From positions 23,402-87,401 of the forward strand of contig JAKPQL010000065.1 of assembly GCA_029547045.1 (NCBI GenBank): a DNA stretch of 64,000 bases, read 5' to 3'. The notes beneath the pieces were generated by a model, which saw only the letters and a program-made list of their open reading frames with translations, was not told the origin of the DNA and did not search any database. This document shows, piece after piece, positions 4,317 through 58,652 of this stretch. This DNA is from Deltaproteobacteria bacterium (lineage in GTDB: Bacteria > Desulfobacterota > Desulfomonilia > UBA1062). The position numbers were made by a program, and so were the translations under genes. The first letter of the stretch is position 1. Every line of letters begins with the position of its first letter.

Positions 4317-4743
4317 ATGGACAAGAAGACACAGGATATGATCCAGGCACACCTGGGCTACACGGATGAGGAGATGGCGATCTTCATGGAAAACCCCCGC
4401 AACCTCGATGTCATCGCAAAGGCACCGGCGCTCCAAGGCAAGACCATCATCGCCGAGGTGGTGGAGGCGTCCGGGTGCAACTCGGGGCACAGGAAGGGCG
4501 ACCGGTTCGTGTTCGACGGCGCAGGGGAACCTGATCACCGCGCTGAACCCAAAAAGGGTCTGCTGCTTCGCCCTGAGCCCTCTCCTGCCGCTCATCCACG
4601 CGGCTGACGAACTCCTCTATGCGGGCATCGACCCCAACGCCATGCGCTTCAGGCGCACCGGGTGCTTCGACACCGGCATACAGTGCGGCGGATGGGGCCA
4701 CATCGTGATGGAGATAAGGGTGGAAGACCGCGCAAAGACATGA
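4317..4743 (+). pseudogene. Small Cys-rich conserved protein (TIGR04076-like) split by a +1 frameshift in a GGGG run near 4524-4527
   Basis: Frame 0 ends ...HRKGDRFVFDGAG and frame +1 continues NLITALNPKRVCCFALSPLLPLIHAADELLYAGIDPNAMRFRRTGCFDTGIQCGGWGHIVMEIRV. Removing one G from 'gcaggggaac' joins them into a single ~135-aa protein. A sequencing error is possible. Confidence 0.5.
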
Positions 4744-9260: not shown

Positions 9261-11222
9261 TCATACCTCGATGCCATCGCCTCCCATGAGCTCCTCCGCC
9301 GTGATGGCCTCGGCCATGACCGCACCGACGGTCCTCGAGAACCGCGCCGGGTCTTCCACCTTGCCGCCCTCGGCGATGAGGGCCAGGTCGTACAGCAGGC
9401 CCGCATAGTCCGCAAGGAGCGGGTCCTTGCCGTTCTTCTCGAACAGGAAGCGGATGTTGGCGACGGCCGGGTGGTCGATGTTGATTTCCAGGATCCTCTT
9501 TGCGGGCTCGGTCTTCTGGCCGGTGGCCTTCATGATGCGCTCCAGGTAGGGGCTCATGTCGTAGGTCTCGCCTGACAGGCAGGACAGCGAGTCCTTCAGG
9601 TGCGTGGAGGCCTTCACGTCCTTCACGTGGTCCTTGAGCTCCTCTTTGAGGAAGGCGAAGAAGCCGTCGAACTCGTGCCTCTTCTTCTCGTCAACCGTGG
9701 TGATGCCGAGGTCGCCCTTTTCCGCGCTCACGAACTTCTTGGTGTCGAAGACCCGCAGGACCTGCACGATGAACTCGTCGATGGGGTCGGTCATGAGCAC
9801 CACCTCGAGGCCCTTCTCCTTGAGCCGCTCCAGGTGGGGACTGTTCAGGAGCGTGGCCGCGTTCTCTCCCGTGATGTAGTAGATGGCGTCCTGGCCCTCC
9901 TGCATGCGGCTCACGTAATCGGCCAACGACACGAGTTTCCCTTCCGAGGCTGTGGTCTGGTACCGAAGGAGTTTGGCGATCCGGTCCCTGTTCTCGTGAT
10001 CCGTGGGGATGCCGATCTTGAGGATGGGGCCGAACTCGGCGAAGAACTTCGCGTACTTCTCGGTGTCCATGCCCTCCAGGAGGTCGAAGAGCCTTTTCAC
10101 GAGGTTCTTGCGGATGTTCCGCACCAGGCCGTCCTGCTGGAGGATCTCGCGGCTGATGTTGAGGTTCAGGTCCGGGGCGTCCACCACGCCCTGCACGAAG
10201 CTGAAGTACTCGGGCAGGAGCTCCCTGCAGTCGTCCATGATGAACACGCGCTTGCAGTAGAGGTGGATGCCGTGCCTGCGCTCGCGCATGGTGAAGTCGA
10301 GGGGCAGCCTCGAGGGTATGTACAGCAGCGCGTTGTACTCGGTGGTGCCCTCGAACCTGATATGCACGTGCTCCAGTGGTTCGGACCAGTCGTGGCTGAT
10401 GTGCTTGTAGAACTCCGAGTACTCCTCGTCCGTGACCTCCGACTTGTTCCTCGTCCAGATGGCCTTCATGGAGTTGAGGGTCTCTTCCCGCTTCACCTTT
10501 CTGGTCGTTTCACCGATGGGCTTGCCGTCGGCGTCCTTGAGGATCTCTGCCTCGGCCAGGGGTTCCTGGCGCTCCACGTCCATGACGATGGGGTAGCTCA
10601 CGAAGTCCGAGTGGCGTTTCACCACGCCCCGGATTGTCCACTCGTCCGTGTAGTCGGGTTCGCCCTCGGAGGGCTCCTTGAGGTGGAGGGTCACGGAGGT
10701 TCCCCTGCCCTTCTTCTTGGTCTCCTCGATGGTGTAGGTCCCGTCGCCCGTGGACTCCCACTTCGTCGCTGTCCTGGCGCCCGGCGCCTTCGTGACGAGG
10801 GTGACCTTGTCCGCCACGATGAAGGAGCTGTAGAACCCCACGCCGAACTGGCCGATGAGCTCGGGTGCGATGGTGTCCTTCTTCATGGCCTCCACCGCCT
10901 CCAGAAAGGCCTTCGTGCCGCTCTGGGCGATGGTGCCGATGTTCTCCACCACCTCCTCGTGTGTCATGCCGATGCCGTTGTCCTCGATGGTGATGGTCCG
11001 GTTCTTCCGGTCGGGGATGATCCTGATCTTGAACTCTCCGTCACCGGCCAGGATGTCGGGGTCGGTCTGGGACTTGAACCTGATCTTGTCAATGGCGTCA
11101 GAGGCGTTCGAGATGAGCTCCCGCAGGAAGATCTCCGGGTGCGAGTACAGGGAGTTGATGATGAGTTTGAGGACCTTCTGGACCTCGGCCTTGAACTGGT
11201 GTGTCTCCTTCTTGTGCTCCAT
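9261..11222 (-). CDS. htpG: Molecular chaperone HtpG (Hsp90)
   Basis: The 653-aa product contains '[14 protein letters not shown]', '[10 protein letters not shown]' and a full-length Hsp90 architecture. Confidence 0.95.
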
Positions 11223-41411: not shown

Positions 41412-41427
41412 TGGCACCCGGTTTGCT
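41412..41427 (+). promoter_or_regulatory. Sigma-54 promoter TGGCAC-N5-TTGCT upstream of amtB-glnK
   Basis: The sequence is an exact -24 GG / -12 GC consensus with correct spacing, about 45 nt upstream of the amtB ATG. Confidence 0.6.
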
Positions 41428-41471
41428 CTGTAGCCCTCAGTTCGATACCCATCTGCGAGGAGGCAGTCGCC

Positions 41472-43060
<1,589 letters not shown>

Positions 43061-47868: not shown

Positions 47869-47902
47869 GACTGCCTGTGGAGGGATCCCTCCACGGACAG
47901 TC
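47869..47902 (+). terminator. Strong hairpin (GACTGcctGTGGAGGGA.TCCCTCCACggaCAGTC) after mscS
   Basis: The hairpin has a 9-bp perfect inner stem plus a 5-bp outer stem. No T-tract follows. Confidence 0.35.
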
Positions 47903-47972
47903 AGACGCCCTGTTCAACTATTCCCCGCCGGATGACGATGTACCCAGAAAGACCGGAATCCAAGGGCATGGC

Positions 47973-50483
47973 ATGAAGGGTTATGGCACACAGTCGCGGC
48001 TCACGGGGCACCTCGGGCTCCTGGGAGTGCTTGTCGGACTCCTCTTCTGGATCGCAGAGTCGCTGATCCATGTGATCGTCTCCCACGAACATACCCTCCT
48101 CGAGGAGATCCTGTCGCCGGACATCCACGAGGTCTCCGTCAGAACCGTCTTCCTGGTCGCGATCTGTGTCTTCGGGTTCCTGGCACAGAGCCTCGTTGTG
48201 AAAAGAAGGCGGGCCGAGGAGGCCCTGAAGGAGAGCGAGCGCAAGCACCGGCTCATCTTCGAGACGCTCACGGACGTGGTATTCTCCTTGGACACCCAGG
48301 GTCGGCTCACCTACCTCAATCCCCAGTTCGAGAAGATCACCGGGTACCGGCCCGAAGATCTCTACGGCCGTCCGTACACGGACATCATCGACCCCGCGTA
48401 CCACGCACTCACCCTGGACATGTTCCAAAAGGGTCTGTCCGGGCGGGAGAACCCCATGTACCAGATGGACCTCGTCGCCGCGGACGGCAGGAAGATCCCC
48501 ATCGAGATCAATGCCAGGACCGTGTGGGACAGATCGGGCAGGCCCGTCGGCAGGATCGGCGTCGCCCGGGACCTGACCCAGCGGCTGGAGGTGGAGGCTG
48601 CCCTCCGCGAGAGCGAGGAAAAATTCAGGGTCCTGGCGGACTCAACACCAACGGCCATCATGCTCTACCAGAACAACAAGTGGACGTACGCGAACCCGGC
48701 CGCCGAGAGGATCAGCGGATACAGCGCTCAAGAGCTCAGGGAAATGAACTTCTGGGACATCGTGCACCCCGACTACAAGCACCTGGTACAGCAGCGGGGC
48801 CAGAAACGCCAGCAGGGCGAAGACACCATACGGCGGTACGAGTTCAAGATCATCTCCAAACAGGGCAGGGAACTCTGGGTCGACCTCTCCGGCGCCTCGA
48901 CCATGCTGGGCGGGAGCCCGGCGGGAATCATTTCGGTCATGGACATCAACGACCGCAAGATCGCCGAGGAGGCGCTCAGGGAGAGCGAGGCCAAGTACCG
49001 GTCCATCCTCGAGAACATTCAGGAGGGGTATTTCGAGCTCGACCTGGCAGGCACCCTCACCTTCTTCAACGAGTCCCTGTGTGCGATATTCGCTTACCCG
49101 AAAGAGAGGCTCGTGGGGGCCGACGTCGGCAGTTTCATCCCCACGAAATCCAGAAGCCAGTTGGACCGAGTGATGGAGCAGATCAGGCGGACCGGCCTGT
49201 CTGAGGAGATCATCGACCTCGACATACTCAAGGGGGACGGGAATACAGGGGCCATCGCCATGACCATGTCTGCAATCCGTGATTCCTCCGGCTCAGTCAC
49301 CGGTTTCAGGGGGGTGGCCAGGGACGTGACGGAGCACAGGAGGCTCGAGGCCCAGCTCCTCCAGGCCCAGAAGATGGAGGCCATCGGGACCCTTGCGGGA
49401 GGCATCGCCCATGACTTCAACAACCTACTCATGGCCATCCAGGGGAACGTGTCCCTCCTCAGTCTCGACCTGCCGCAGTCTAGCCCCGACCGGAAGCGGA
49501 TCGAACACATCGAGCAGTGCATACGGAGCGGGTCCGACCTCACCCGGCAGCTCCTCGGCTTCGCAAGGGGCGGCAAGTACGAGGTGACGCCCACGGACCT
49601 GAACAGGCTCATCACGAAGACAGCGGACATGTTCGGCCATGCCAGGAAGGAGATCTCCATCCATACGGACCTCGATGAAGGTCTCTGGAGCGTGGAGGTG
49701 GACCAGGGACAGATCGAGCAGGTACTCCTCAACCTGTACGTAAACGCCTGGCACGCCATGCCCGGCGGTGGAGAGCTCTTCCTGAAATCAGACAATCTCA
49801 TCCCTGACGAGAGCTTTACCCAGGCCTACGAAGCAAGGCCCGGCAGGTTCGTGCGCGTCTCGGTCACCGACACCGGGGTGGGGATGGACGAGGCGACCCG
49901 CCAGCGTGTGTTCGAGCCCTTCTTCACCACCAGGGACAAGTCGCGGGGCTCGGGGCTCGGACTCGCCTCGGCCTACGGGATCGTCCGCAACCACGGCGGG
50001 TTCATCAGCGTGTACAGCGAGGTGGGCATGGGATCCACCTTCAACGTCTACCTCCCCGCATCGGACAAGGCCGCCAAGGAGCATGAAGACTCGAAACAAT
50101 CGGATGTCATCAGGGGCACGAAACGGGTGCTGCTCATCGACGACGAGGACATGGTCCTCACGATAGGCGGCGAAATCCTCGAGAAGCTCGGCTATACGGT
50201 CCTGAGGGCGGAAAGCGGCGAAGAGGCGCTGGAGCTGTTCCATGAGCACAAGGACGGGATCGACCTGGTGATTCTGGACATGATCATGCCAGGGATCGGC
50301 GGCTCCGAGGTCTTTGACCGGATCAGGGCAGAATCCCCCGAGGTCAAGGTCATCCTCTCCAGCGGCTACAGCATGAACGACGACACCGACCGGATCATGA
50401 AGCGCGGATGCAACGGGTTCATCCAGAAGCCCTTCGACATACAGACCCTGTCCAGGAAGATCCGCACGGTCCTCGATGTATAA
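47973..50483 (+). CDS. Hybrid sensor histidine kinase / response regulator with multiple PAS domains
   Basis: The product has an N-terminal TM segment and three or four PAS/PAC repeats. The HisKA box is 'GGIAHDFNNLL'. HATPase boxes are 'DTGVGMDE' and 'GSGLGLA'. A C-terminal receiver domain carries 'LLIDDE' and 'ILDMIMPG'. Confidence 0.85.
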   Translation: MKGYGTQSRLTGHLGLLGVLVGLLFWIAESLIHVIVSHEHTLLEEILSPDIHEVSVRTVFLVAICVFGFLAQSLVVKRRRAEEALKESERKHRLIFETLTDVVFSLDTQGRLTYLNPQFEKITGYRPEDLYGRPYTDIIDPAYHALTLDMFQKGLSGRENPMYQMDLVAADGRKIPIEINARTVWDRSGRPVGRIGVARDLTQRLEVEAALRESEEKFRVLADSTPTAIMLYQNNKWTYANPAAERISGYSAQELREMNFWDIVHPDYKHLVQQRGQKRQQGEDTIRRYEFKIISKQGRELWVDLSGASTMLGGSPAGIISVMDINDRKIAEEALRESEAKYRSILENIQEGYFELDLAGTLTFFNESLCAIFAYPKERLVGADVGSFIPTKSRSQLDRVMEQIRRTGLSEEIIDLDILKGDGNTGAIAMTMSAIRDSSGSVTGFRGVARDVTEHRRLEAQLLQAQKMEAIGTLAGGIAHDFNNLLMAIQGNVSLLSLDLPQSSPDRKRIEHIEQCIRSGSDLTRQLLGFARGGKYEVTPTDLNRLITKTADMFGHARKEISIHTDLDEGLWSVEVDQGQIEQVLLNLYVNAWHAMPGGGELFLKSDNLIPDESFTQAYEARPGRFVRVSVTDTGVGMDEATRQRVFEPFFTTRDKSRGSGLGLASAYGIVRNHGGFISVYSEVGMGSTFNVYLPASDKAAKEHEDSKQSDVIRGTKRVLLIDDEDMVLTIGGEILEKLGYTVLRAESGEEALELFHEHKDGIDLVILDMIMPGIGGSEVFDRIRAESPEVKVILSSGYSMNDDTDRIMKRGCNGFIQKPFDIQTLSRKIRTVLDV

Positions 50484-50487
50484 AAAA

Positions 50488-50519
50488 CGGGAGGGGAGCA
50501 TCGTTATCCCCCCCTCCCG
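50488..50519 (-). terminator. Rho-independent terminator hairpin (CGGGAGGGG...CCCCTCCCG) followed by a U-tract on the minus strand; bidirectional between the hybrid kinase and the acyl-CoA dehydrogenase
   Basis: The 9-bp GC stem is flanked by 'taaaaaac' on the plus strand, which reads as a U6 run after the hairpin on the minus strand. Confidence 0.5.
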
Positions 50520-50573
50520 GTTCATACGTGCCGGTGATCCGGCATGTGCTTACCGTTCTAGACCAGGCCTACC

Positions 50574-52289
50574 CTACTCGTTCATGGCGTACTCACCGTT
50601 GAGCACGGCCAGGTACTTCTCCCACACCTTGTTGTACTGCTCGGGGTTCGGGACCGCCTTGATGAGCATGATCTTGGTGCAGTACTCGCGCTGGGCGTCC
50701 GTGGAGCTGTGGTTGCCGTAGATCTGCAGGCCGAAGTGGGCGAAGTCGCGCACCATGAAGTCGAAGATCTGGTTGATGACGTCGTCGTCAACCTTGTCGA
50801 ACTTGGCCTGCTCGAGGATGAGCTGGCCGTAGACCACGATGGAGAACATCTCGCCCACGGGCAGCGACCACGAGGGGTCCATGTCCTGGGCCTTGCTGGG
50901 GCCGGCCTTTTCCAGCATCTCCTTGAAGATCTCTATCTGCTGCATGAAGGTGGCCACGTTCGGGAGCTTCTTGTTGGCCTCGAAGACCGGCTTGTAGTCG
51001 TGGAACTGGACCGAGCCCAGACCCTTCGTGGGTCCCTGGTTGAAGAGGAACTCGTCGTCCTTGAGCGAGAAGTCGGGAGAGACGGGCGCGTACTCGGCCG
51101 GGTTGAAGAAGTAGTTCTTCATGAACTTCCGGATGAGCTGCACGTTCACGTGCACCGTGCCCTCGAGCTTGGACGGGCCGCGCACGTCGGCGGCGGCCAT
51201 GTGGAAGTAGGTGTCCTTCTCGAAACCCTTGGCCGCGATGACATCCCAGAGCAGGTTGATGACGTCCTCGCTTTGCAGGGTCACCTTCATCTTGCTCGTG
51301 GGGTTGTAGAGGAGGTAGCGCCGGTCATTGGCGTTTGAGTTCCGGAAGTAATCCGTGGCTCGGCGCTGGTACATCTTCATGGCCACGAGCCTGAGCCATG
51401 CGTCCATGAAGTTCTTGCGCACGTGGGGCATGTCCGTGACCTTCATGCCGTAGAGGATGCGGTTGGAGGCGTGGGTGATGGCCTCGTAGAAGCAGTGCTC
51501 GGCCACGCCGATGGAGGCGGGCCCGATGTTGAACTTGCCGATGTTCACCGTGTTCAGCGCCGAGTCCCACGCGTGCGGGCCCCTCGAGAGGATGTCGTCG
51601 GCGGTGATGGGGTAGTCGTGGAGCGCGAAGTTGGACACGTACTCCTGGTGGCTGATGACGTTCTTCTTCAGCTCGTAGGCCTTGTGGCGGTAGTTGGTGA
51701 CGAAGAAGGTGTAGTCGTCCGTGCCGTCCTTGACCTTGCCCAGGGTGGAGACCATTTCGGCCTCGTTGCCATTGCCGATGTAGTACTTCTCGCCGTTGGC
51801 CACGAACGTGCCGTCGCCCTTGGGGGTCAGCGTGGTCTCGGTGGAGTAGATATCCGCGCCGTGGGTACGCTCGGACAGGCCGAAGGCGAAGATGGCCCCG
51901 CCCCGGAGCAGCTCTGCGGCCCTCTGCTTGGCCTTCTCGTTCGTGCCCATCCAGATGGGGCCCAGGCCCAGGATGGTCACCTGGAAGCAGTACCAGTAGC
52001 CCAGCCCGTAGAAGGCGAGCAGCTCGGAGTACTCGGAGTTGCGCGCCGTGTCCCAGCGGGCGTCCGGGTCGCCGCCCGCGTACTTCTTGGGCGTGAGCAG
52101 CTTGAAGAAGATCCGCTCGCGGGCGAGGAAGTCGATGAACTCACGGTACCATATCGTCCTGTGGTAGTCATCGAGGAGCCTCTGCTTTCCCATGTTCTCG
52201 AAGAAGGCTATGGTCTTGTCCATGATGGCCTTGGACCCTTCGTCGGCCATGAGGCTCTTGTACTTCTTTGGCTGGATCAGATAGTTCAT
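50574..52289 (-). CDS. Acyl-CoA dehydrogenase family protein (long N-terminal form)
   Basis: The 572-aa product shows ACAD N-, middle- and C-domains ('GLSERTHGADIYSTETTL', 'YYIGNGNEAEM'). AGGAGAG RBS is present. Confidence 0.85.
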   Translation of the reverse strand: MNYLIQPKKYKSLMADEGSKAIMDKTIAFFENMGKQRLLDDYHRTIWYREFIDFLARERIFFKLLTPKKYAGGDPDARWDTARNSEYSELLAFYGLGYWYCFQVTILGLGPIWMGTNEKAKQRAAELLRGGAIFAFGLSERTHGADIYSTETTLTPKGDGTFVANGEKYYIGNGNEAEMVSTLGKVKDGTDDYTFFVTNYRHKAYELKKNVISHQEYVSNFALHDYPITADDILSRGPHAWDSALNTVNIGKFNIGPASIGVAEHCFYEAITHASNRILYGMKVTDMPHVRKNFMDAWLRLVAMKMYQRRATDYFRNSNANDRRYLLYNPTSKMKVTLQSEDVINLLWDVIAAKGFEKDTYFHMAAADVRGPSKLEGTVHVNVQLIRKFMKNYFFNPAEYAPVSPDFSLKDDEFLFNQGPTKGLGSVQFHDYKPVFEANKKLPNVATFMQQIEIFKEMLEKAGPSKAQDMDPSWSLPVGEMFSIVVYGQLILEQAKFDKVDDDVINQIFDFMVRDFAHFGLQIYGNHSSTDAQREYCTKIMLIKAVPNPEQYNKVWEKYLAVLNGEYAMNE

Positions 52290-52458
52290 ATCACTCTCCT
52301 TTTCTCGGTTCTTGACGGATTCACGAAACCCTAGGGTGCCAGTTCTCCCCTGCGGGTACAGGGGGGAACGGAACCTTTTTTTCATACACGATCGTGCCGA
52401 AAAAGAAAACGTATTTTGTGAAACGATCGTTCACGGTTCTTTTACACGGCAAGCGTTC

Positions 52459-53817
52459 TCAGACGTTCACCGGCATTGTCGCAGGGATCAGGAGACCGGC
52501 CTCGAAGGCCTGCCTCTCCAGGTCCTCCCGGAAGTCCGGGTGCGCTATGGAGATCATGGACTTTACCCTGTCCGGGATGGACTTCATGTAGATGTCCGCC
52601 ACGCCGTACTCGGTGACTATGTACATGGCGTCGGACCGGGGCGTGGTCACCACGGTTCCCGGTGCGAAGTTCAGCACGATCCTGGACATGAGAGAACCGT
52701 CCTTGTTTTTACCCGTGGCCGGCAGGGCGATGAACGACTTGCCGCCCTTGGAGGCTATGGCACCGCGGACGAAGTCCGCCTGGCCGCCCGTGGCGCTGTA
52801 CTGCGTATGGCCGATGGTCTCGGACGCGATCTGTCCGGTAAGGTCCACGGTCAGCGCTGAATTGATGGAGCACAGGTTGTCGTGACGCCTGATGGTGTCG
52901 TAGTGGTTTGCGATCTGGATGGGCATGGCCAGGATGGTCGGGTTGTCGTCGCAGAAGTCCAGGAGTCTCTTGGTACCGATGATCAGTCCTCCCACCGCGA
53001 TCTTGTCACGGAAGATGGTCTTCTTCCTTCCGGTGATCACCCCGAGCTCGGCCAGCTCGGCCACAGCGTCGGAAAGAATCTCCGCATGGACTCCCAGATC
53101 CTTCTTCTCGTGGAGGAAGTAGGCAACGGCATTGGGAATGCCGCCGATGCCCAGCTGGATGGTGGATCCGTCCGGGATGCGTTCGGCAATGAACTCGCCG
53201 ATCCTCTTTTCCACATCCGTTATCTCGATCTCGGGCACGACAGGGAGATCATGGTCCTTTTCCACGATGAAGTCCACCTCGCTCACGTGGATCACATTCT
53301 CGATGCCATGGATCCACGGTGCCCTGCTGTTCACCTGGGCGATCACCTTTCTGCACCTCTTCGTTGCGTACCTCCCATAGACCACCCCGCAGGGGCCGAA
53401 GTTCATGTATCCGCGGTCATCCGGCGGGGTTACCTCTATCATGGCCACGTCGTGAGCCCGGGCCTGATCAAGGGCGATATAGGCCTTGGAGAGGTGCATG
53501 GGAAAGGGCACCACATTCCCCTGGGGCAGGAACATCCTCTCCAGTGGGCCGCAGTAGCCGCTGTAGTACGTGATCTTGCCGACATAATCGCCCCCCAGGA
53601 ACGCAAAGGGGTATATGAGAAGGTTGCTCGCGATCTTCACCTTCTGAAGCTCGTCCTTGCGCGCTGCCAGCGCGTTCAGGATGTCTATCGGTGCACTGTT
53701 GACCGGCGGCACGATGATCCAGTCGCCCGATTTGACCTGGGCTGCTGCCTCCTCGGCCGTCACGAGCTTGCCCTTGTAGTCTTCCCTCCATCTCCCCGGT
53801 ACTGCCTTTCCCGTCAT
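52459..53817 (-). CDS. Acetyl-CoA hydrolase/transferase family protein (4-hydroxybutyrate / succinyl-CoA:acetate CoA-transferase-like)
   Basis: The product has two CoA-transferase halves and a catalytic-Glu region 'GIGGIPNAV'. GGAGGACAC RBS is present. Confidence 0.85.
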   Translation of the reverse strand: MTGKAVPGRWREDYKGKLVTAEEAAAQVKSGDWIIVPPVNSAPIDILNALAARKDELQKVKIASNLLIYPFAFLGGDYVGKITYYSGYCGPLERMFLPQGNVVPFPMHLSKAYIALDQARAHDVAMIEVTPPDDRGYMNFGPCGVVYGRYATKRCRKVIAQVNSRAPWIHGIENVIHVSEVDFIVEKDHDLPVVPEIEITDVEKRIGEFIAERIPDGSTIQLGIGGIPNAVAYFLHEKKDLGVHAEILSDAVAELAELGVITGRKKTIFRDKIAVGGLIIGTKRLLDFCDDNPTILAMPIQIANHYDTIRRHDNLCSINSALTVDLTGQIASETIGHTQYSATGGQADFVRGAIASKGGKSFIALPATGKNKDGSLMSRIVLNFAPGTVVTTPRSDAMYIVTEYGVADIYMKSIPDRVKSMISIAHPDFREDLERQAFEAGLLIPATMPVNV

Positions 53818-53843
53818 GGTGTCCTCCTTGGATGCGTGAATGG

Positions 53844-53859
53844 CCTGCAGAGCAGCAGG
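53844..53859 (-). promoter_or_regulatory. Sigma-54 promoter (minus strand TGGCAC-agctc-cTGCT) upstream of the CoA-transferase / acyl-CoA dehydrogenase operon
   Basis: The spacing between GG and GC is correct. The site lies about 27 nt upstream of the start codon and is divergent from the sigma-54 activator gene. Confidence 0.5.
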
Positions 53860-54019
53860 AGCTGTGCCATACGTGACATTTCCACATCATTCCAACATTA
53901 TTGACGTTTTATTTCGCGATACCGACGACCTGCCCATATTTCGTCAGCATGTGCCCAAATGTTGTCTTGCCTCCGCGGAGGAAGGGGGTTATACCGGGAG
54001 AACGCCCGGGGGGTTCATC

Positions 54020-57000
54020 ATGGCAGACCTGAAGACCAGACACTGGGAGACCCTGGCACTGCTCAGGGCAGTCGGGGAACCTGCGGATTCAGACCTCGTG
54101 TCTGCCCTTGTCCCGCTGAGCCCCACAGAGCTGCAGGATTTTCTGCGCGCCGGGTTTGACGCTGGCCTCGTGCTCATCCATTCCGACGGCCGCATCGCAC
54201 TGACACGGGACCTGCCTCACGAGGTCATCCGGAAGCTGACCCGCATCACCACCAGGGAGCACCTCTCGGGGCTCATCGAGAGGATACGGCGGCTCGGGTT
54301 GCAGGAGAGCCTGCCCGGCCGCGCACTTGTCTCGCTCCTGGCGAAGGCTGGCCGCGACCACGAGGCCGCCGTGTTCGCCGGGGAATCGGCCCGGAGGTGC
54401 GTCCGCACCGGAGACAAGCAGGAGGCCCTGGACCTCCTGGAGACTGCCCTGGCGCTGGCAGGTCCGCATATCGGAAGGCCCGAGTGGGACCCGCTCTTTC
54501 TTGGCACGGCAAACGAGCTGTGCCGCCTGCGGCTCAACCTCACCCGGGACATCCACGGCATCCCCGCGATCCTCGAGCAGGCCTACCCTGTTGCCGAACG
54601 GCTCGGCGACCGCAGGACGCTCGCCCGCTGTGACCTTGTCATGGGACTGTACCGCTACATCATCGGCCGTACCGCCGAAGGACTCGGACTCATCGCCTCG
54701 GGGCTCGATCAGGCCCGGGCACTGGGAGACGATGACATCATGGCCGCCTCGGCCGAGTTCAGGGGCATCTACTACTACCTTCAGGGCATGTACAAGGAGG
54801 CCGTGGACAGCTTCGAGGCCGTGGTGCGCCTCGCCGGGAAGGCGCCCACCTTCCTCCCCGAGCACCTGGCGTCGTCTTCGGCCCTGGGCTACTGCTGCGC
54901 CCTGCTGGGACAGTACCACCGCGCCGTGGGCGTACTCGACTCCCACTGGCGCAGGTCAAAAATGACCGGGAACGACCGCAACACCTGCTTCTTCGAGGCC
55001 CTGCTCGGCATCGTGCTCATCATCATGGGGCGGAGGGAAGAGGCGCACGAGCACCTCCTCTGCGCCCTCAGGGAGGCCGAGGAAAACGGCAATGTCCCTG
55101 CCCTGCATGTGGTCCAGAAGGGGCTCGCCTACTACAGCTACTTCGAGGGCGACCTCGAGGAGGCATACCGGATCACCAGGGACACGGTCTACGCCGAGGC
55201 CATCGGACCCCAGTACAACTGGCCCGTCACCCTGGAGATGCTCCATGCCTTCCAGGCCAGGGGCCTTCCGCCCATCCCCTCCTTCGGCTTCGAGGAGGAG
55301 ATGGCGCGCGTCCTGTCCGGGCCCAACATCCACCTGCGGGGGGTGGCGCTTCGTCTGCGCGCCCTCCAGGCCCGCAGCAGGGACGAGGGCCCGGAGGTGG
55401 TGCTCCAGCTCCTGGAGGCCAGCGAGGCCGACCTGCTCAGGACCGGCGACACCATCGAGCTCGCCAAGACCCGCGCCGAGATGGCACGGGTTAAGCTCAC
55501 ACAGCGAGACCGCGCCGCTGCCCGCAACCTTGCCCTCATGGCATGGGAAGGACTGGGGGGATATGGCAGGGATTTCTTTCCGCACGATCTCACGTCCCTC
55601 CTGGGCACAGGCGCCACGAACAGGGTCCCGCCACGAAGGAAGGACCTCATGGACCGCTTCATGGATCTCCTGGACGAGTTTGTGCCCAGTACGGACCTCG
55701 ATGAGCTCCTCGCCCGCCTCGTATCGGCCGCGGGCAGGTTCTTCGGCGCCGAGCGCGGCGGTCTGTTCTGGTTTTCCGGTCCGAAGGAGACGGCCAGGCC
55801 GGTGCTGAGGGCCTCGTTCAACCTCGACAGGGCAGAGGTCTTCTCCGAAGATTTCCGTTCAACACTGGGGCTCATATTCAAGGTCTTCCGGAACGCCGAA
55901 CCGCTGGTGATCCGCCCGTCCGGCGACTCCCGCGGCGCCGTGAAGCACCAGACCCTGGCCGTCATCTGCCTGCCCGTGGTGGTCTCCAGCGAGGTGGCCG
56001 GGGTGCTGTACCTGGACAACACCTACCTCAACCCTGCGGGCGAAGTCATCGACCGGGACGTGGTGGTCAGGGTGGCCCGCCACATCAGCGTCTCCATCGA
56101 ACGTATCCTCCACTACACCGCCATGATGGACGCCCACACCTCTCGGTTCTCTTCAGCCCATGTCATGGAGGAGGGCGCGTCTGTGCCGGGAGATATCCTC
56201 GGGCACAGCCCGGTCATAACCGCGCTGCTCGCCCAGGCAGACCAGGCCGCCGGCACCGACGCCACTGTGCTCATCACCGGGGAGACGGGCTCAGGCAAGG
56301 AACTCCTGGCCCGCAGGATCCACGACATGGGGAAGCGCAAGGCCGGACCCTTCGTCGTGGTGGATCTGGCCGCAGTGCCTGAAGCGCTGGTGGAGAGCGA
56401 ACTCTTCGGCCACGAGAAAGGCGCCTTCACGGGCGCAGACCGCCAGAAGCAGGGCAGGGTCGAGCTGGCTCACACTGGAACGCTCTTCATCGACGAGATC
56501 GGCGACGTGCCCCCGTCGGTCCAGGTGAAGCTGCTGGGTGCTCCAGGAGAAGAGCTTCACCCGCGTGGGCGGAACCCGCGCCATGGTATCCGATTTCCGG
56601 CTCGTGGCCGCCACCAACCGCGACCTGAAAAAGGACATGGAAGACGGCCGCTTCCGTCAGGACCTCTACTTCAGGCTCAACGTGGTGCCGCTGGTTCTTC
56701 CTCCGCTGCGCGAACGCGGATCCGACGTGGTGCTCCTGGCGCGGGAGTTCCTTGGCCAGTATGCCAGGAAATACCACCGGTCCCTGCCCGACCTCTTGGA
56801 CGAGGACATCCGGGCGATCACGACCTACCCATGGCCTGGAAACGTGCGGGAGCTGAAAAATGTGATGGAGCGCGCCGCCATCCTCTCCTCACCGGAGAGG
56901 CTGCTGCTGAACCTGCCCCTTCCCCCGGCCAGTGGCCGGGAACCCCAGTTCACGGACAGGCCCACCATGGACGAGCTCCAGCGCCGGTACATCACCCATG

Positions 57001-57110
57001 TGCTCGGCATCACGGGTGGACGCATCGGCGGGCCCGGGGGCGCGGCCAGGATCCTGGGCATGAAACGCACCACGCTGCAGGCGCGGATGAGGAAACTCGG
57101 GATCACCTGA
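54020..57110 (+). pseudogene. Sigma-54-dependent transcriptional activator with a large N-terminal helical-repeat domain, GAF domain, AAA+ sigma-54 domain and Fis-type HTH; frame disrupted near 56538
   Basis: Frame A carries '...[15 protein letters not shown]...GAFTGA...[16 protein letters not shown]' and frame B continues '(R)[13 protein letters not shown]...[13 protein letters not shown]...[13 protein letters not shown]'. The conserved LLRVLQE motif is reduced to 'ctgctgg|gtgctc', which implies a net 2-nt loss. A sequencing error is possible. Confidence 0.8.
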
Positions 57111-57161
57111 GGGGCATCCGCAGGGCCCCCGAAGTCTCGACGCGGCTTTGTGCACGGATGG

Positions 57162-58652
57162 CTAGCGCACCTCCACCCGGATGTTGCCGGTCCGGCCGGT
57201 CCGGTGGTCCAGCGCCATGAGCGTCACCTTCTGGCCGGACTCCAGGACGCCGGCGCCCTGCACGAACTCCTCCACGCCTTCCACCGGCTGTCCCTCAATG
57301 CCTAAGATGACATCATTGAGTTCGAACCCCACCTTCGCCATGGGGCCCTTGGGGTCGAGCCACTTGATGGCCACGCCCTGGCCTTTCTCGAGGCCGTAGC
57401 GCTCCTGTTCTTTGTCGGAAAGCTCCCGCACGTCCACGCCCAGCTTTTCACGCAGGGACGATGCGATGAAACGGGCCGAGTCCTCGAGGTTTCCCACCTT
57501 CACTGAGATGGTGAGCCGCTTCCCGCCACGCATGATGCCGAGCTTCACATCCTTTCCCAGGGGCATGCCCGCGATGAGGTTGCGCAGCGTGCTGGAATCG
57601 GGGATGTCTTTCCCGTCCAGGGTCATGATCACGTCCTCCGGGAGGATCCCCGCAGCTGCGGCCGGGCCTCCCTTGACCACGTCCACCACGAAGGCGCCCC
57701 TGGGCGAATCCAGCTTCAGGGCCTTCATCTTGGCAAAGGGCACATCCTGTATGGTGATGCCGAGCCAGCCCCTGGTGACCTTGCCGGTTTTCATGAGCGA
57801 CCTGGCGATGTGCACGGCCATGTTGCTGGGTATGGCGAACCCCAGGCCCTCGGAGCCCCCGGACTGAGAGGCGATGACCGCGTTGACGCCGATGACCTGG
57901 CCGTCGAGGTTCAGCAGCGGCCCGCCGCTGTTGCCCGGGTTGATGGCCGCATCGGTCTGGAGGAAGTCCTGGTAGGTGTTGGGGTCTGTGATGCCCTTGC
58001 GGTGCTTGGCACTGATGATGCCCTGGGTCACGGTCTGGTCCAGACCCCTCGGGTGTCCGATGGCCACCACCCACTCCCCCACCTGCACCTTGTCGGAGTC
58101 GCCGAAGGTGACGAAGGGGAGTTTCGTTTCAGCCGCCACCTTGATCACGGCCAGGTCCGTCCTGGGGTCTGCACCGATGATCTTCGCCTTGTACTGGTTT
58201 CCGTCGGACAGGATCACCTGGATCTCGGTTGCGCCGTCCACCACGTGGTTGTTGGTGAGGATGTAGCCGTCGGTGCTCATGATCATGCCGGTGCCGATCC
58301 CCCTGAACTCGCGCTTGAACTGCCGCGGCCCCTGGGGAAAGTTGAAGAAGTGGCGGAAGAACGGGTCGCTCTCGAAGGGGGAAAAGGGATTCGCCACCTC
58401 CTGGCTCTGGGTCACCTCGATGTGCACCACCGCCGGGATGTTCTTCTGTGCCACCTGGACGATTATGGTCCTGAAGTCCTTCTCGCTCACAACGGTCTGT
58501 TTCGTTTCTTCCTGGGTGATGGAGTCGTCGATGGACTTGAACCTGGGGCTGTAGATGGACACCTTTTCGTCATCACCCCTGGTACATGAAGCCATGGACC
58601 ATACAACAATGACCAGGAGCACTGCAAGACAGCGGACACTGCTGCTCTTCAT
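57162..58652 (-). CDS. degP: Do/DegP/HtrA family periplasmic serine endopeptidase with two PDZ domains
   Basis: The product has a signal peptide and the catalytic triad motifs 'LTNNHVV', 'D...DLAV' and 'GNSGGPL'. Confidence 0.9.

Follow-up and report, generated by a model that had tools for sequence, protein, structure and literature searches.

The 64,000-nucleotide (nt) stretch of contig JAKPQL010000065.1 from a Deltaproteobacteria bacterium (Desulfobacterota; Desulfomonilia; UBA1062; assembly GCA_029547045.1), referred to below as the window, encodes a large activator of sigma-54-dependent transcription. Its gene, on the plus strand at 54020-57110, is divergent from the genes of a CoA-transferase and a long-form acyl-CoA dehydrogenase-family protein (ACAD). 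Judging from a conserved promoter, a conserved pair of upstream boxes and conserved gene order, this regulator almost certainly switches on the CoA-transferase/ACAD operon, as an initial annotation of the window had proposed; the coordinates and identities given there for the two operon genes are confirmed (Table 1). In the window the regulator gene lacks two nucleotides and is out of frame from codon 840 onwards, and near-identical alleles from the same population are intact. Taken as a whole, the locus is probably best explained by an intact regulator that activates the operon promoter via the two boxes, and of which the window happens to hold a broken copy.

Architecture of the regulator

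The gene starts with an ATG at 54020 and ends with a stop codon at 57108-57110. The frame set by the ATG reads VQVKLL and continues, out of frame, as GAPGEE; the frame changes after codon 839, and the +1 frame is open from 56538 to the stop. Adding CG at the junction gives CTG CTG CGG GTG, so that KLLRVLQE is restored in a repaired protein of 1,030 amino acids (aa), and relative to this sequence the missing nucleotides fall between 56536 and 56537. R840 of this motif is conserved at 90% or more in an alignment of 38 homologues.

Pfam domain calls on the repaired protein, together with a structure model of its N-terminus, define the regulator as a bacterial enhancer-binding protein composed of a winged helix, a TPR superhelix, a GAF domain, a sigma-54 AAA+ ATPase and a probable Fis-type helix-turn-helix (HTH). 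The order of helical repeats, GAF, AAA+ and HTH is the one given in the initial annotation. TPR matches cover approximately residues 127-317, and GAF is matched at 559-693 with 35.9 bits against a cut-off of 22.4. The Sigma54_activat domain (PF00158) is aligned over profile positions 1-167 of 168, with AAA_lid_14 following at 898-962. HTH_8 (PF02954) at 984-1027 scores 21.7 bits against a cut-off of 22 and spans profile positions 2-42 of 42; many orthologues are annotated with this domain too. Walker A (GETGSGKE, 754-761), GAFTGA (801-806) and Walker B (LFIDEI, 822-827) are all upstream of the break, and the arginine-finger and sensor regions and the HTH are downstream of it. The deletion splits the ATPase between Walker B and the arginine fingers and detaches the HTH.

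The predicted operon promoter and a candidate enhancer

The intergenic region between the divergent genes contains, on the operon strand, a predicted sigma-54 promoter, TGGCAC-agctc-CTGCT. The initial annotation reported this element, with the canonical GG/GC spacing, 27 nt upstream of the CoA-transferase start; the element and its spacing stand, and the distance of about 27 nt is that from the predicted transcription start to the ATG (53817), the 3' end of the element being 36 nt upstream of the ATG. TGGCAC-N5-YTGCW is matched at two places in the window, where 0.18 matches would be expected by chance, and two matches were reached in 3 of 100 shuffles. The second match, TGGCACCCGGTTTGCT at 41412-41427 (+), is directly upstream of an amtB-glnK pair (ammonium transporter Amt, 41412-42701; P-II, glnK-like, 42650-43060), a classic target of NtrC and sigma-54. 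Because of this second site, the motif appears to be specific in the window and sigma-54 is evidently in use.

We aligned nine distinct orthologous intergenic regions and found only two invariant islands. One is the promoter itself (-24 TGGCA/-12 TGC). The other is a block upstream of the promoter, at a constant distance of 54-58 nt, made of two ATAT(N)TGGGC boxes 21 bp apart; the spacer that separates block and promoter is AT-rich and fixed in length, and its sequence is not conserved. In the distant orthologues L097, L102, L087 and L100, the boxes are near-perfect GCCCATATATGGGC palindromes, GCCCATAT(A)TGGGC. Of the three occurrences of AT[AT]TGGGC in the window, two are within this block. 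We read the box pair, the spacer and the promoter as the expected anatomy of a candidate enhancer, or upstream activating sequence (UAS), joined to its promoter by a looping spacer.

Two observations were named in the initial annotation as ones that, together, would refute its regulon: a sigma-70 promoter with a mapped transcription start in front of the CoA-transferase, and absence of the TGGCAC element from orthologous regions. A sequence scan of the intergenic region found no sigma-70-like promoter on the operon strand, and the element is conserved in nine loci whose regulators are 60-85% identical. On the other strand, facing the regulator, there is a weak sigma-70-like match, GTGACA-17-CATTAT at 53873-53901 (+), which is no better than matches in shuffled sequence; it stands back to back with the sigma-54 promoter and precedes the boxes, an arrangement that would be compatible with autorepression.

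Conservation of the locus and the predicted target

Orthologous loci were collected from metagenomes, with regulators 60-88% identical to that of the window. In 14 metagenome loci the regulator is divergent from the ACAD gene, with or without the CoA-transferase gene before it, and the divergent orientation towards this same gene set holds for every orthologous locus collected. A search of genome contigs with AAA+ patterns returned at least 600 generic sigma-54 activators, and the only full-length relatives among the matches listed were those of L007 and L008.

The CoA-transferase belongs to the clade of 4-hydroxybutyrate and butyryl-CoA:acetate CoA-transferases, and it matches 4-hydroxybutyrate CoA-transferases in the PDB with E-values of 1e-77 to 1e-90 (1e-90 for 3eh7). 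Its TIGR03948 score is 337.5 bits against a cut-off of 674.8. The two Pfam domains and the PDB matches support membership in the family, and the assignment of a substrate is not supported. In the ACAD, Acyl-CoA_dh_1 is above its Pfam cut-off with 50.1 bits, the middle domain scores 32.9 against 33.3, and the N-terminal domain was not detected by Pfam; among structures, it matches butyryl-CoA dehydrogenase (PDB: 1buc, E 6e-18). The suggestion in the initial annotation that the substrates are short or branched acyl-CoAs is not established.

The ACAD is 83-93% identical in all orthologous loci and is more conserved than the regulator. In the L098-L101 clade, where the regulators are 60% identical, there is no CoA-transferase, and the promoter is followed by a leader of 230-380 nt and then by the ACAD; the leaders at L098:2462-2700 and L100:3902-4290 have no called gene. 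The CoA-transferase is absent in some orthologues; the conserved predicted target is the ACAD. ACAD identity remains at 83% even in Chloroflexi/Dehalococcoidia metagenome-assembled genomes (MAGs), among more than 8,000 matches with E below 1e-30, and such unusually high conservation across phyla may reflect either strong constraint or horizontal transfer. Family members 83-91% identical were seen across MAGs of Desulfobacterota, Syntrophaceae, Desulfomonilia and Chloroflexi/Dehalococcoidia (examined in L103, L104 and L105). In Syntrophaceae the ACAD gene is grouped with those of a nitroreductase, a FadB-like hydratase/dehydrogenase and a thiolase, and the FadB-like and thiolase neighbours indicate a role in beta-oxidation.

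Between the two operon genes there is a further conserved palindromic block (Table 1), TGTAAAAGAACCGTGAACGATCGTTTCACAAAAG ... GATCGTGTATGAAAGAAAGG, which holds the palindromes GTGAACGATCGTTTCAC and CACGATCGTG. It was found in 17 related loci and not in L097 and L102, which have a short spacer; an operator, an internal promoter or an RNA hairpin acting on the ACAD are conceivable roles. An Rfam scan of window positions 50300-57400, with E up to 1, found no RNA families.

The ACAD gene is convergent with that of a hybrid histidine kinase (47877-50483, +) containing three PAS domains, HisKA, HATPase and a receiver domain. The kinase gene is beside the ACAD gene in the same species (L001, L002) and not in a sister species (L088), and is probably unrelated to the operon.

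Table 1. Features of the regulator locus and of its predicted target operon (window coordinates)
Feature	Coordinates	Strand	Basis and remarks
Regulator, 5' part, codons 1-839, frame A	54020..56536	+	Translation; N-terminus aligns with orthologue starts
N-terminal sensor module, aa 1-556	54020..55687	+	Winged-helix-like (~1-62), then TPR-type alpha-superhelix with ~13 hairpins
GAF domain, aa 557-694	55688..56101	+	Pfam PF01590, E 1.2e-8; GAF_2 also above cut-off
Sigma-54 interaction AAA+ domain, aa 726-892, cut by frameshift	56195..56693	+	PF00158, E 4.4e-67, repaired protein
Walker A	56279-56302	+	
GAFTGA	56420-56437	+	
Walker B	56483-56500	+	
Frameshift site	56535..56538	+	CTGCTG/GGTG here (slash, break), CTGCTGCGGGTG in intact alleles; 2 nt (CG/GC) gone, codon R840 lost
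Regulator, 3' part, codons 841-1030 and stop, +1 frame	56538..57110	+	Rest of AAA+, AAA lid, Fis-type HTH
Fis-type HTH	56967-57098	+	Within regulator 3' part
Predicted sigma-54 promoter	53854..53869	-	TGGCACAGCTCCTGCT; -24 GG/-12 GC; predicted transcription start near 53844
Candidate UAS block CAAGACAACATTTGGGCACATGCTGACGAAATATGGGCAGG	53929..53969	-	Invariant island across orthologous loci
Candidate UAS boxes AAGACAACATTTGGGCA; TGACGAAATATGGGCA	53952-53968; 53931-53946	-	Pair at ~95 and ~115 bp upstream of predicted start
Ribosome-binding site of CoA-transferase, AAGGAGGA	53822..53829	-	AAGGAGGA conserved in orthologues
Class-I CoA-transferase, 452 aa	52459..53817	-	Pfam AcetylCoA_hydro and AcetylCoA_hyd_C
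Conserved palindromic block GTGAACGATCGTTTCAC ... CACGATCGTG	52376..52430	-	Four-species alignment, inverted repeats; within spacer 52290-52458
Long-form ACAD, 571 aa	50574..52289	-	Pfam Acyl-CoA_dh_M, Acyl-CoA_dh_1

The frameshift and intact alleles in the same population

The break in KLLRVLQE, with a net loss of two nucleotides near 56538, had been noticed in the initial annotation and is present in the window sequence. By exact matching to the neighbouring CoA-transferase, six contigs of the same population were found. The longest of them, L001 (JGI 3300010345, 8,994 bp), is 99.94% identical to window positions 49352-58343, and differs from it by three substitutions, all within the ACAD gene, and by a single 2-nt gap; it reads CTGCTGCGGGTG at the junction and encodes an unbroken protein of 1,030 aa. 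The regulator gene is thus free of substitutions outside the gap. The intact allele is also found in L109/L110 (ERZ773284; the same as GCA_035419925.1, protein HQI81945.1) and in L111 (ERZ27257440), and another MAG carries the full intact regulator, HOS96949.1. In other words, the CGG codon that the initial annotation expected is present in three near-identical independent assemblies, in all of which the frame through the AAA+ and DNA-binding domains is uninterrupted; in the window copy it is interrupted. The deleted allele is a singleton, seen in the window only, and the 1,066-aa read-through product is known from one NCBI contig only, without a protein accession.

The frameshift is not a species-wide feature, and the species as a whole has an intact activator. 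Because the deletion is a singleton among otherwise intact assemblies of the same population, we interpret it either as a recent, strain-specific loss-of-function allele or as an isolated consensus error, and lean modestly towards the real allele. If real, the deletion should leave the strain unable to activate the promoter, which would then be silent rather than constitutive; the constitutive expression that the initial annotation allowed for is an implausible outcome of losing a sigma-54 activator.

An error of assembly or consensus, with an intact 1,030-aa activator and a fully functional system behind it, is a serious contender, to which we give somewhat less than even weight. It would account for CGG being found in three independent same-population assemblies, up to 99.94% identical, and the deleted allele only once, for a gene that shows no decay elsewhere, and for the frameshifted product coming from one NCBI contig with no protein accession. 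However, a 2-nt deletion outside any homopolymer or repeat tract is atypical of short- or long-read errors, and the approximately 50 other genes of the 64-kb window are unsplit. Wherever two adjacent open reading frames (ORFs) lie on the same strand and in different frames, each is a complete gene of its own: response regulator and histidine kinase, PhoU_div, ABC-F, FMN reductase, SnoaL and ECF sigma factor, TusA/DsrE and cysteine desulfurase, Amt and P-II, and a TetR-family gene with an ORF that has no Pfam match. A third point against an error comes from a sister species, in which a 1-nt frameshift allele and a linked single-nucleotide polymorphism (SNP) recur in two differently built assemblies, indicating that real frameshift alleles of this regulator exist.

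Frameshift alleles in a sister species

The sister species is represented by five contigs with the same gene order and a regulator approximately 85% identical at the protein level. The gene is intact in L089 and L090, and three NCBI MAGs of this species contain the intact protein. L088 (JGI 3300010338; position 9933) has a 1-nt deletion at about codon 645, and L091/L107 (JGI 3300009712; position 4564) has a different 1-nt deletion at about codon 603; both are in the GAF domain, and each is the sole indel in 7.5-9.3 kb at 99.97% identity or more. The codon-603 allele and its linked SNP are also in L106 (ENA ERZ27257437; position 5150), a MEGAHIT contig of different length. Since this second assembly was built differently, the allele is in the reads and is no assembler artefact.

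These alleles invite the idea that natural populations repeatedly acquire mutations which inactivate or truncate the regulator, that its loss or N-terminal truncation is selected or tolerated in these habitats, and that the window carries one such mutation. Three independent frameshifts in two sister species (codon 840 in the window, ~645 in L088, ~603 in L091/L106) are each the sole indel in 7.5-9.3 kb at 99.94% identity or more, with flanking genes untouched. Under a uniform distribution of indels, all three would hit the regulator with a probability of about 0.047, so that the clustering is a hint and no proof. Downstream of each of the two GAF-domain lesions there remains an ORF of 372 aa with complete AAA+ and HTH domains. 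N-terminally shortened forms of enhancer-binding proteins such as NorR, DmpR and XylR are often constitutively active, and in principle the product of this ORF could be so too. Still, there are few cases and the p-value is marginal, the gene is intact in most assemblies of either species, some assemblies may have read sets in common, and the preserved architecture at 60-85% identity speaks clearly of purifying selection across species. The lesion in the window, moreover, is inside the ATPase core and can only inactivate. We therefore hold recurrent loss to be unlikely as an account of the locus.

A frame change decoded by programmed ribosomal frameshifting, or serving as a phase-variation switch, might be imagined from the fact that both halves of the gene are intact and in adjacent frames. 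A +1 bypass would nevertheless still delete the near-invariant R840, and the other orthologues examined read straight through the codon-840 site; the only other frame breaks are those of L088 and L091/L106, at other codons, and those of the error-ridden L087. There is no slippery heptamer or simple-sequence repeat at CTGCTG/GGTG, CAGG/CGTG or CTCG/CCGC. For lack of such a site or repeat, and with the orthologues uninterrupted at this position, we reject both mechanisms as scarcely credible.

Two other loci were discarded as evidence of truncated regulators. In L087 (ENA ERZ25039462 contig_18506; 159-kb contig, 71% orthologue) nearly every gene is split into 2-3 ORFs, including those of ACAD, CoA-transferase, Ni_insertion and Amidase_3; it is an error-ridden assembly, probably of uncorrected long reads, in which a "truncated" regulator is uninformative. 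L094, with a regulator that seems to be missing its N-terminus, has an NN scaffold gap instead.

Proposed mechanism

The reading that we favour is activation of the operon by the intact regulator. The HTH would bind the pair of ATAT(N)TGGGC boxes, 21 bp apart, between the divergent genes. The TPR and/or GAF modules would respond to a signal, for which a fatty acid, an acyl-CoA or a partner protein are the probable candidates, and this would relieve inhibition of the AAA+ ring, which would then remodel the sigma-54 RNA polymerase at TGGCAC-N5-CTGCT. The CoA-transferase and the 571-aa ACAD would thereby be switched on, and a fatty acid of short or medium chain length would be activated and undergo its first oxidation.

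Several observations weigh against this scheme or parts of it. The left halves of both boxes in the window are degenerate, so that here they are direct repeats rather than palindromes. Through the palindromic block in the spacer, the ACAD may be expressed independently of sigma-54, in which case the gene would not be completely silent without the activator. Both enzymes score below NCBIfam equivalog cut-offs, and the proposed substrate and ligand are guesses from family-level homology. Finally, with one deleted assembly against three intact ones, an assembly or consensus error may underlie the broken copy.

The sensor module and related systems

An AlphaFold2 model of residues 1-556, built from an alignment of 18 sequences (pLDDT 86.9, pTM 0.79), shows a winged-helix-like domain at ~1-62 followed by ~13 helical hairpins. 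By structure, the modelled winged-helix/TPR module is matched best by the peptide receptors Rap and NprR. When its profile was compared with 1.84 billion representative proteins, 333 clusters (at 50% identity) were found with E of 1e-30 or less, mostly from MAGs of Desulfobacterota/Syntrophales type. Among the 150 entries listed, most of the full-length ones are approximately 1,020-1,060 aa long and have the same architecture; in the source records they go by general names ("sigma 54-interacting transcriptional regulator" or "GAF, ATPase, Fis / TPR"). A literature search gave nothing specific on a characterised TPR-GAF sigma-54 activator or on sigma-54 control of this gene pair in syntrophs.

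The kind of system is already known: the regulator is an enhancer-binding protein with an uncharacterised winged-helix/TPR/GAF sensor. It resembles NifA, FhlA and NorR in having GAF directly N-terminal to a GAFTGA-bearing sigma-54 AAA+ domain, a probable C-terminal Fis-type HTH, candidate enhancer sites upstream and a predicted -24/-12 promoter. These are also its best NCBIfam matches, all far below cut-off (NifA, 341.6 vs 528.85; FhlA, 328.6 vs 830; NorR, 312.9 vs 476). Unlike them, it has an extra winged-helix and TPR module of 556 aa before GAF, and its predicted target is CoA-thioester catabolism, whereas theirs are nitrogen fixation, formate and nitric oxide detoxification. AtoC and PrpR are likewise sigma-54 activators, of short-chain acid catabolism, encoded next to or divergently from a CoA-transferase operon (atoDAEB) and an acyl-CoA operon (prp), respectively. 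They are matched by the regulator through its AAA+ domain, with scores of 302 and 263 against cut-offs of 714 and 499. AtoC belongs to the two-component response regulators and carries a receiver domain, PrpR has PrpR_N, and TPR and GAF are absent from both.

The likeness of the N-terminal domain to MalT/LuxR-type scaffolds, proposed in the initial annotation, holds for the helical repeats. A TPR/SUPR-type superhelical sensor domain is shared with MalT and other STAND (LAL) proteins, from which the regulator differs by having neither the N-terminal NB-ARC/STAND NTPase nor the C-terminal LuxR-type HTH. Pfam found no NTPase or LuxR family in residues 1-556, and the sole P-loop is that of the sigma-54 AAA+ domain. 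Beside MalT/STAND, the RRNPP receptors (Rap, NprR, PlcR and AimR) are among the closest known systems.

In two distant members of the family, 40% and 34% identical, neighbouring genes code for thiolase, CoA-ligase and ChsH2-like proteins. The 40% identical one, in L112 (5661-6000), is divergent from two DUF2148 genes, a ChsH2-like gene, a thiolase and a CoA-ligase, and a perfect palindrome, TGTTCACATATGAACA, is located ~110 nt upstream of GGCAT-N5-TTGCT, i.e. in the same layout with another box sequence. From gene neighbourhoods, sigma-54 control of CoA-thioester catabolism appears to be the theme of the family.

A bolder combination, in which frameshifting recurs in wild anaerobes as a way of tuning fatty-acid oxidation genes and the winged-helix/TPR module makes the regulator a protein- or peptide-gated sigma-54 activator, strikes us as rather improbable.

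Implications

For the species, the message is that the operon in this genome should not be called silent on the strength of one assembly. If the recurrent frameshifts are true, they would amount to regulatory loss at the population level, or to N-terminal truncation to a constitutive form, and would offer a modest case from nature of regulator loss that segregates in populations of bioreactors or sediments. For the family, an uncharacterised group of sigma-54 activators of approximately 1,035 aa, the locus provides a testable regulatory unit, consisting of the promoter, the two-copy GCCCATAT(A)TGGGC motif and the conserved ACAD, and with it a handle on the control of the entry step of beta-oxidation in uncultured syntrophic and anaerobic fatty-acid oxidisers.

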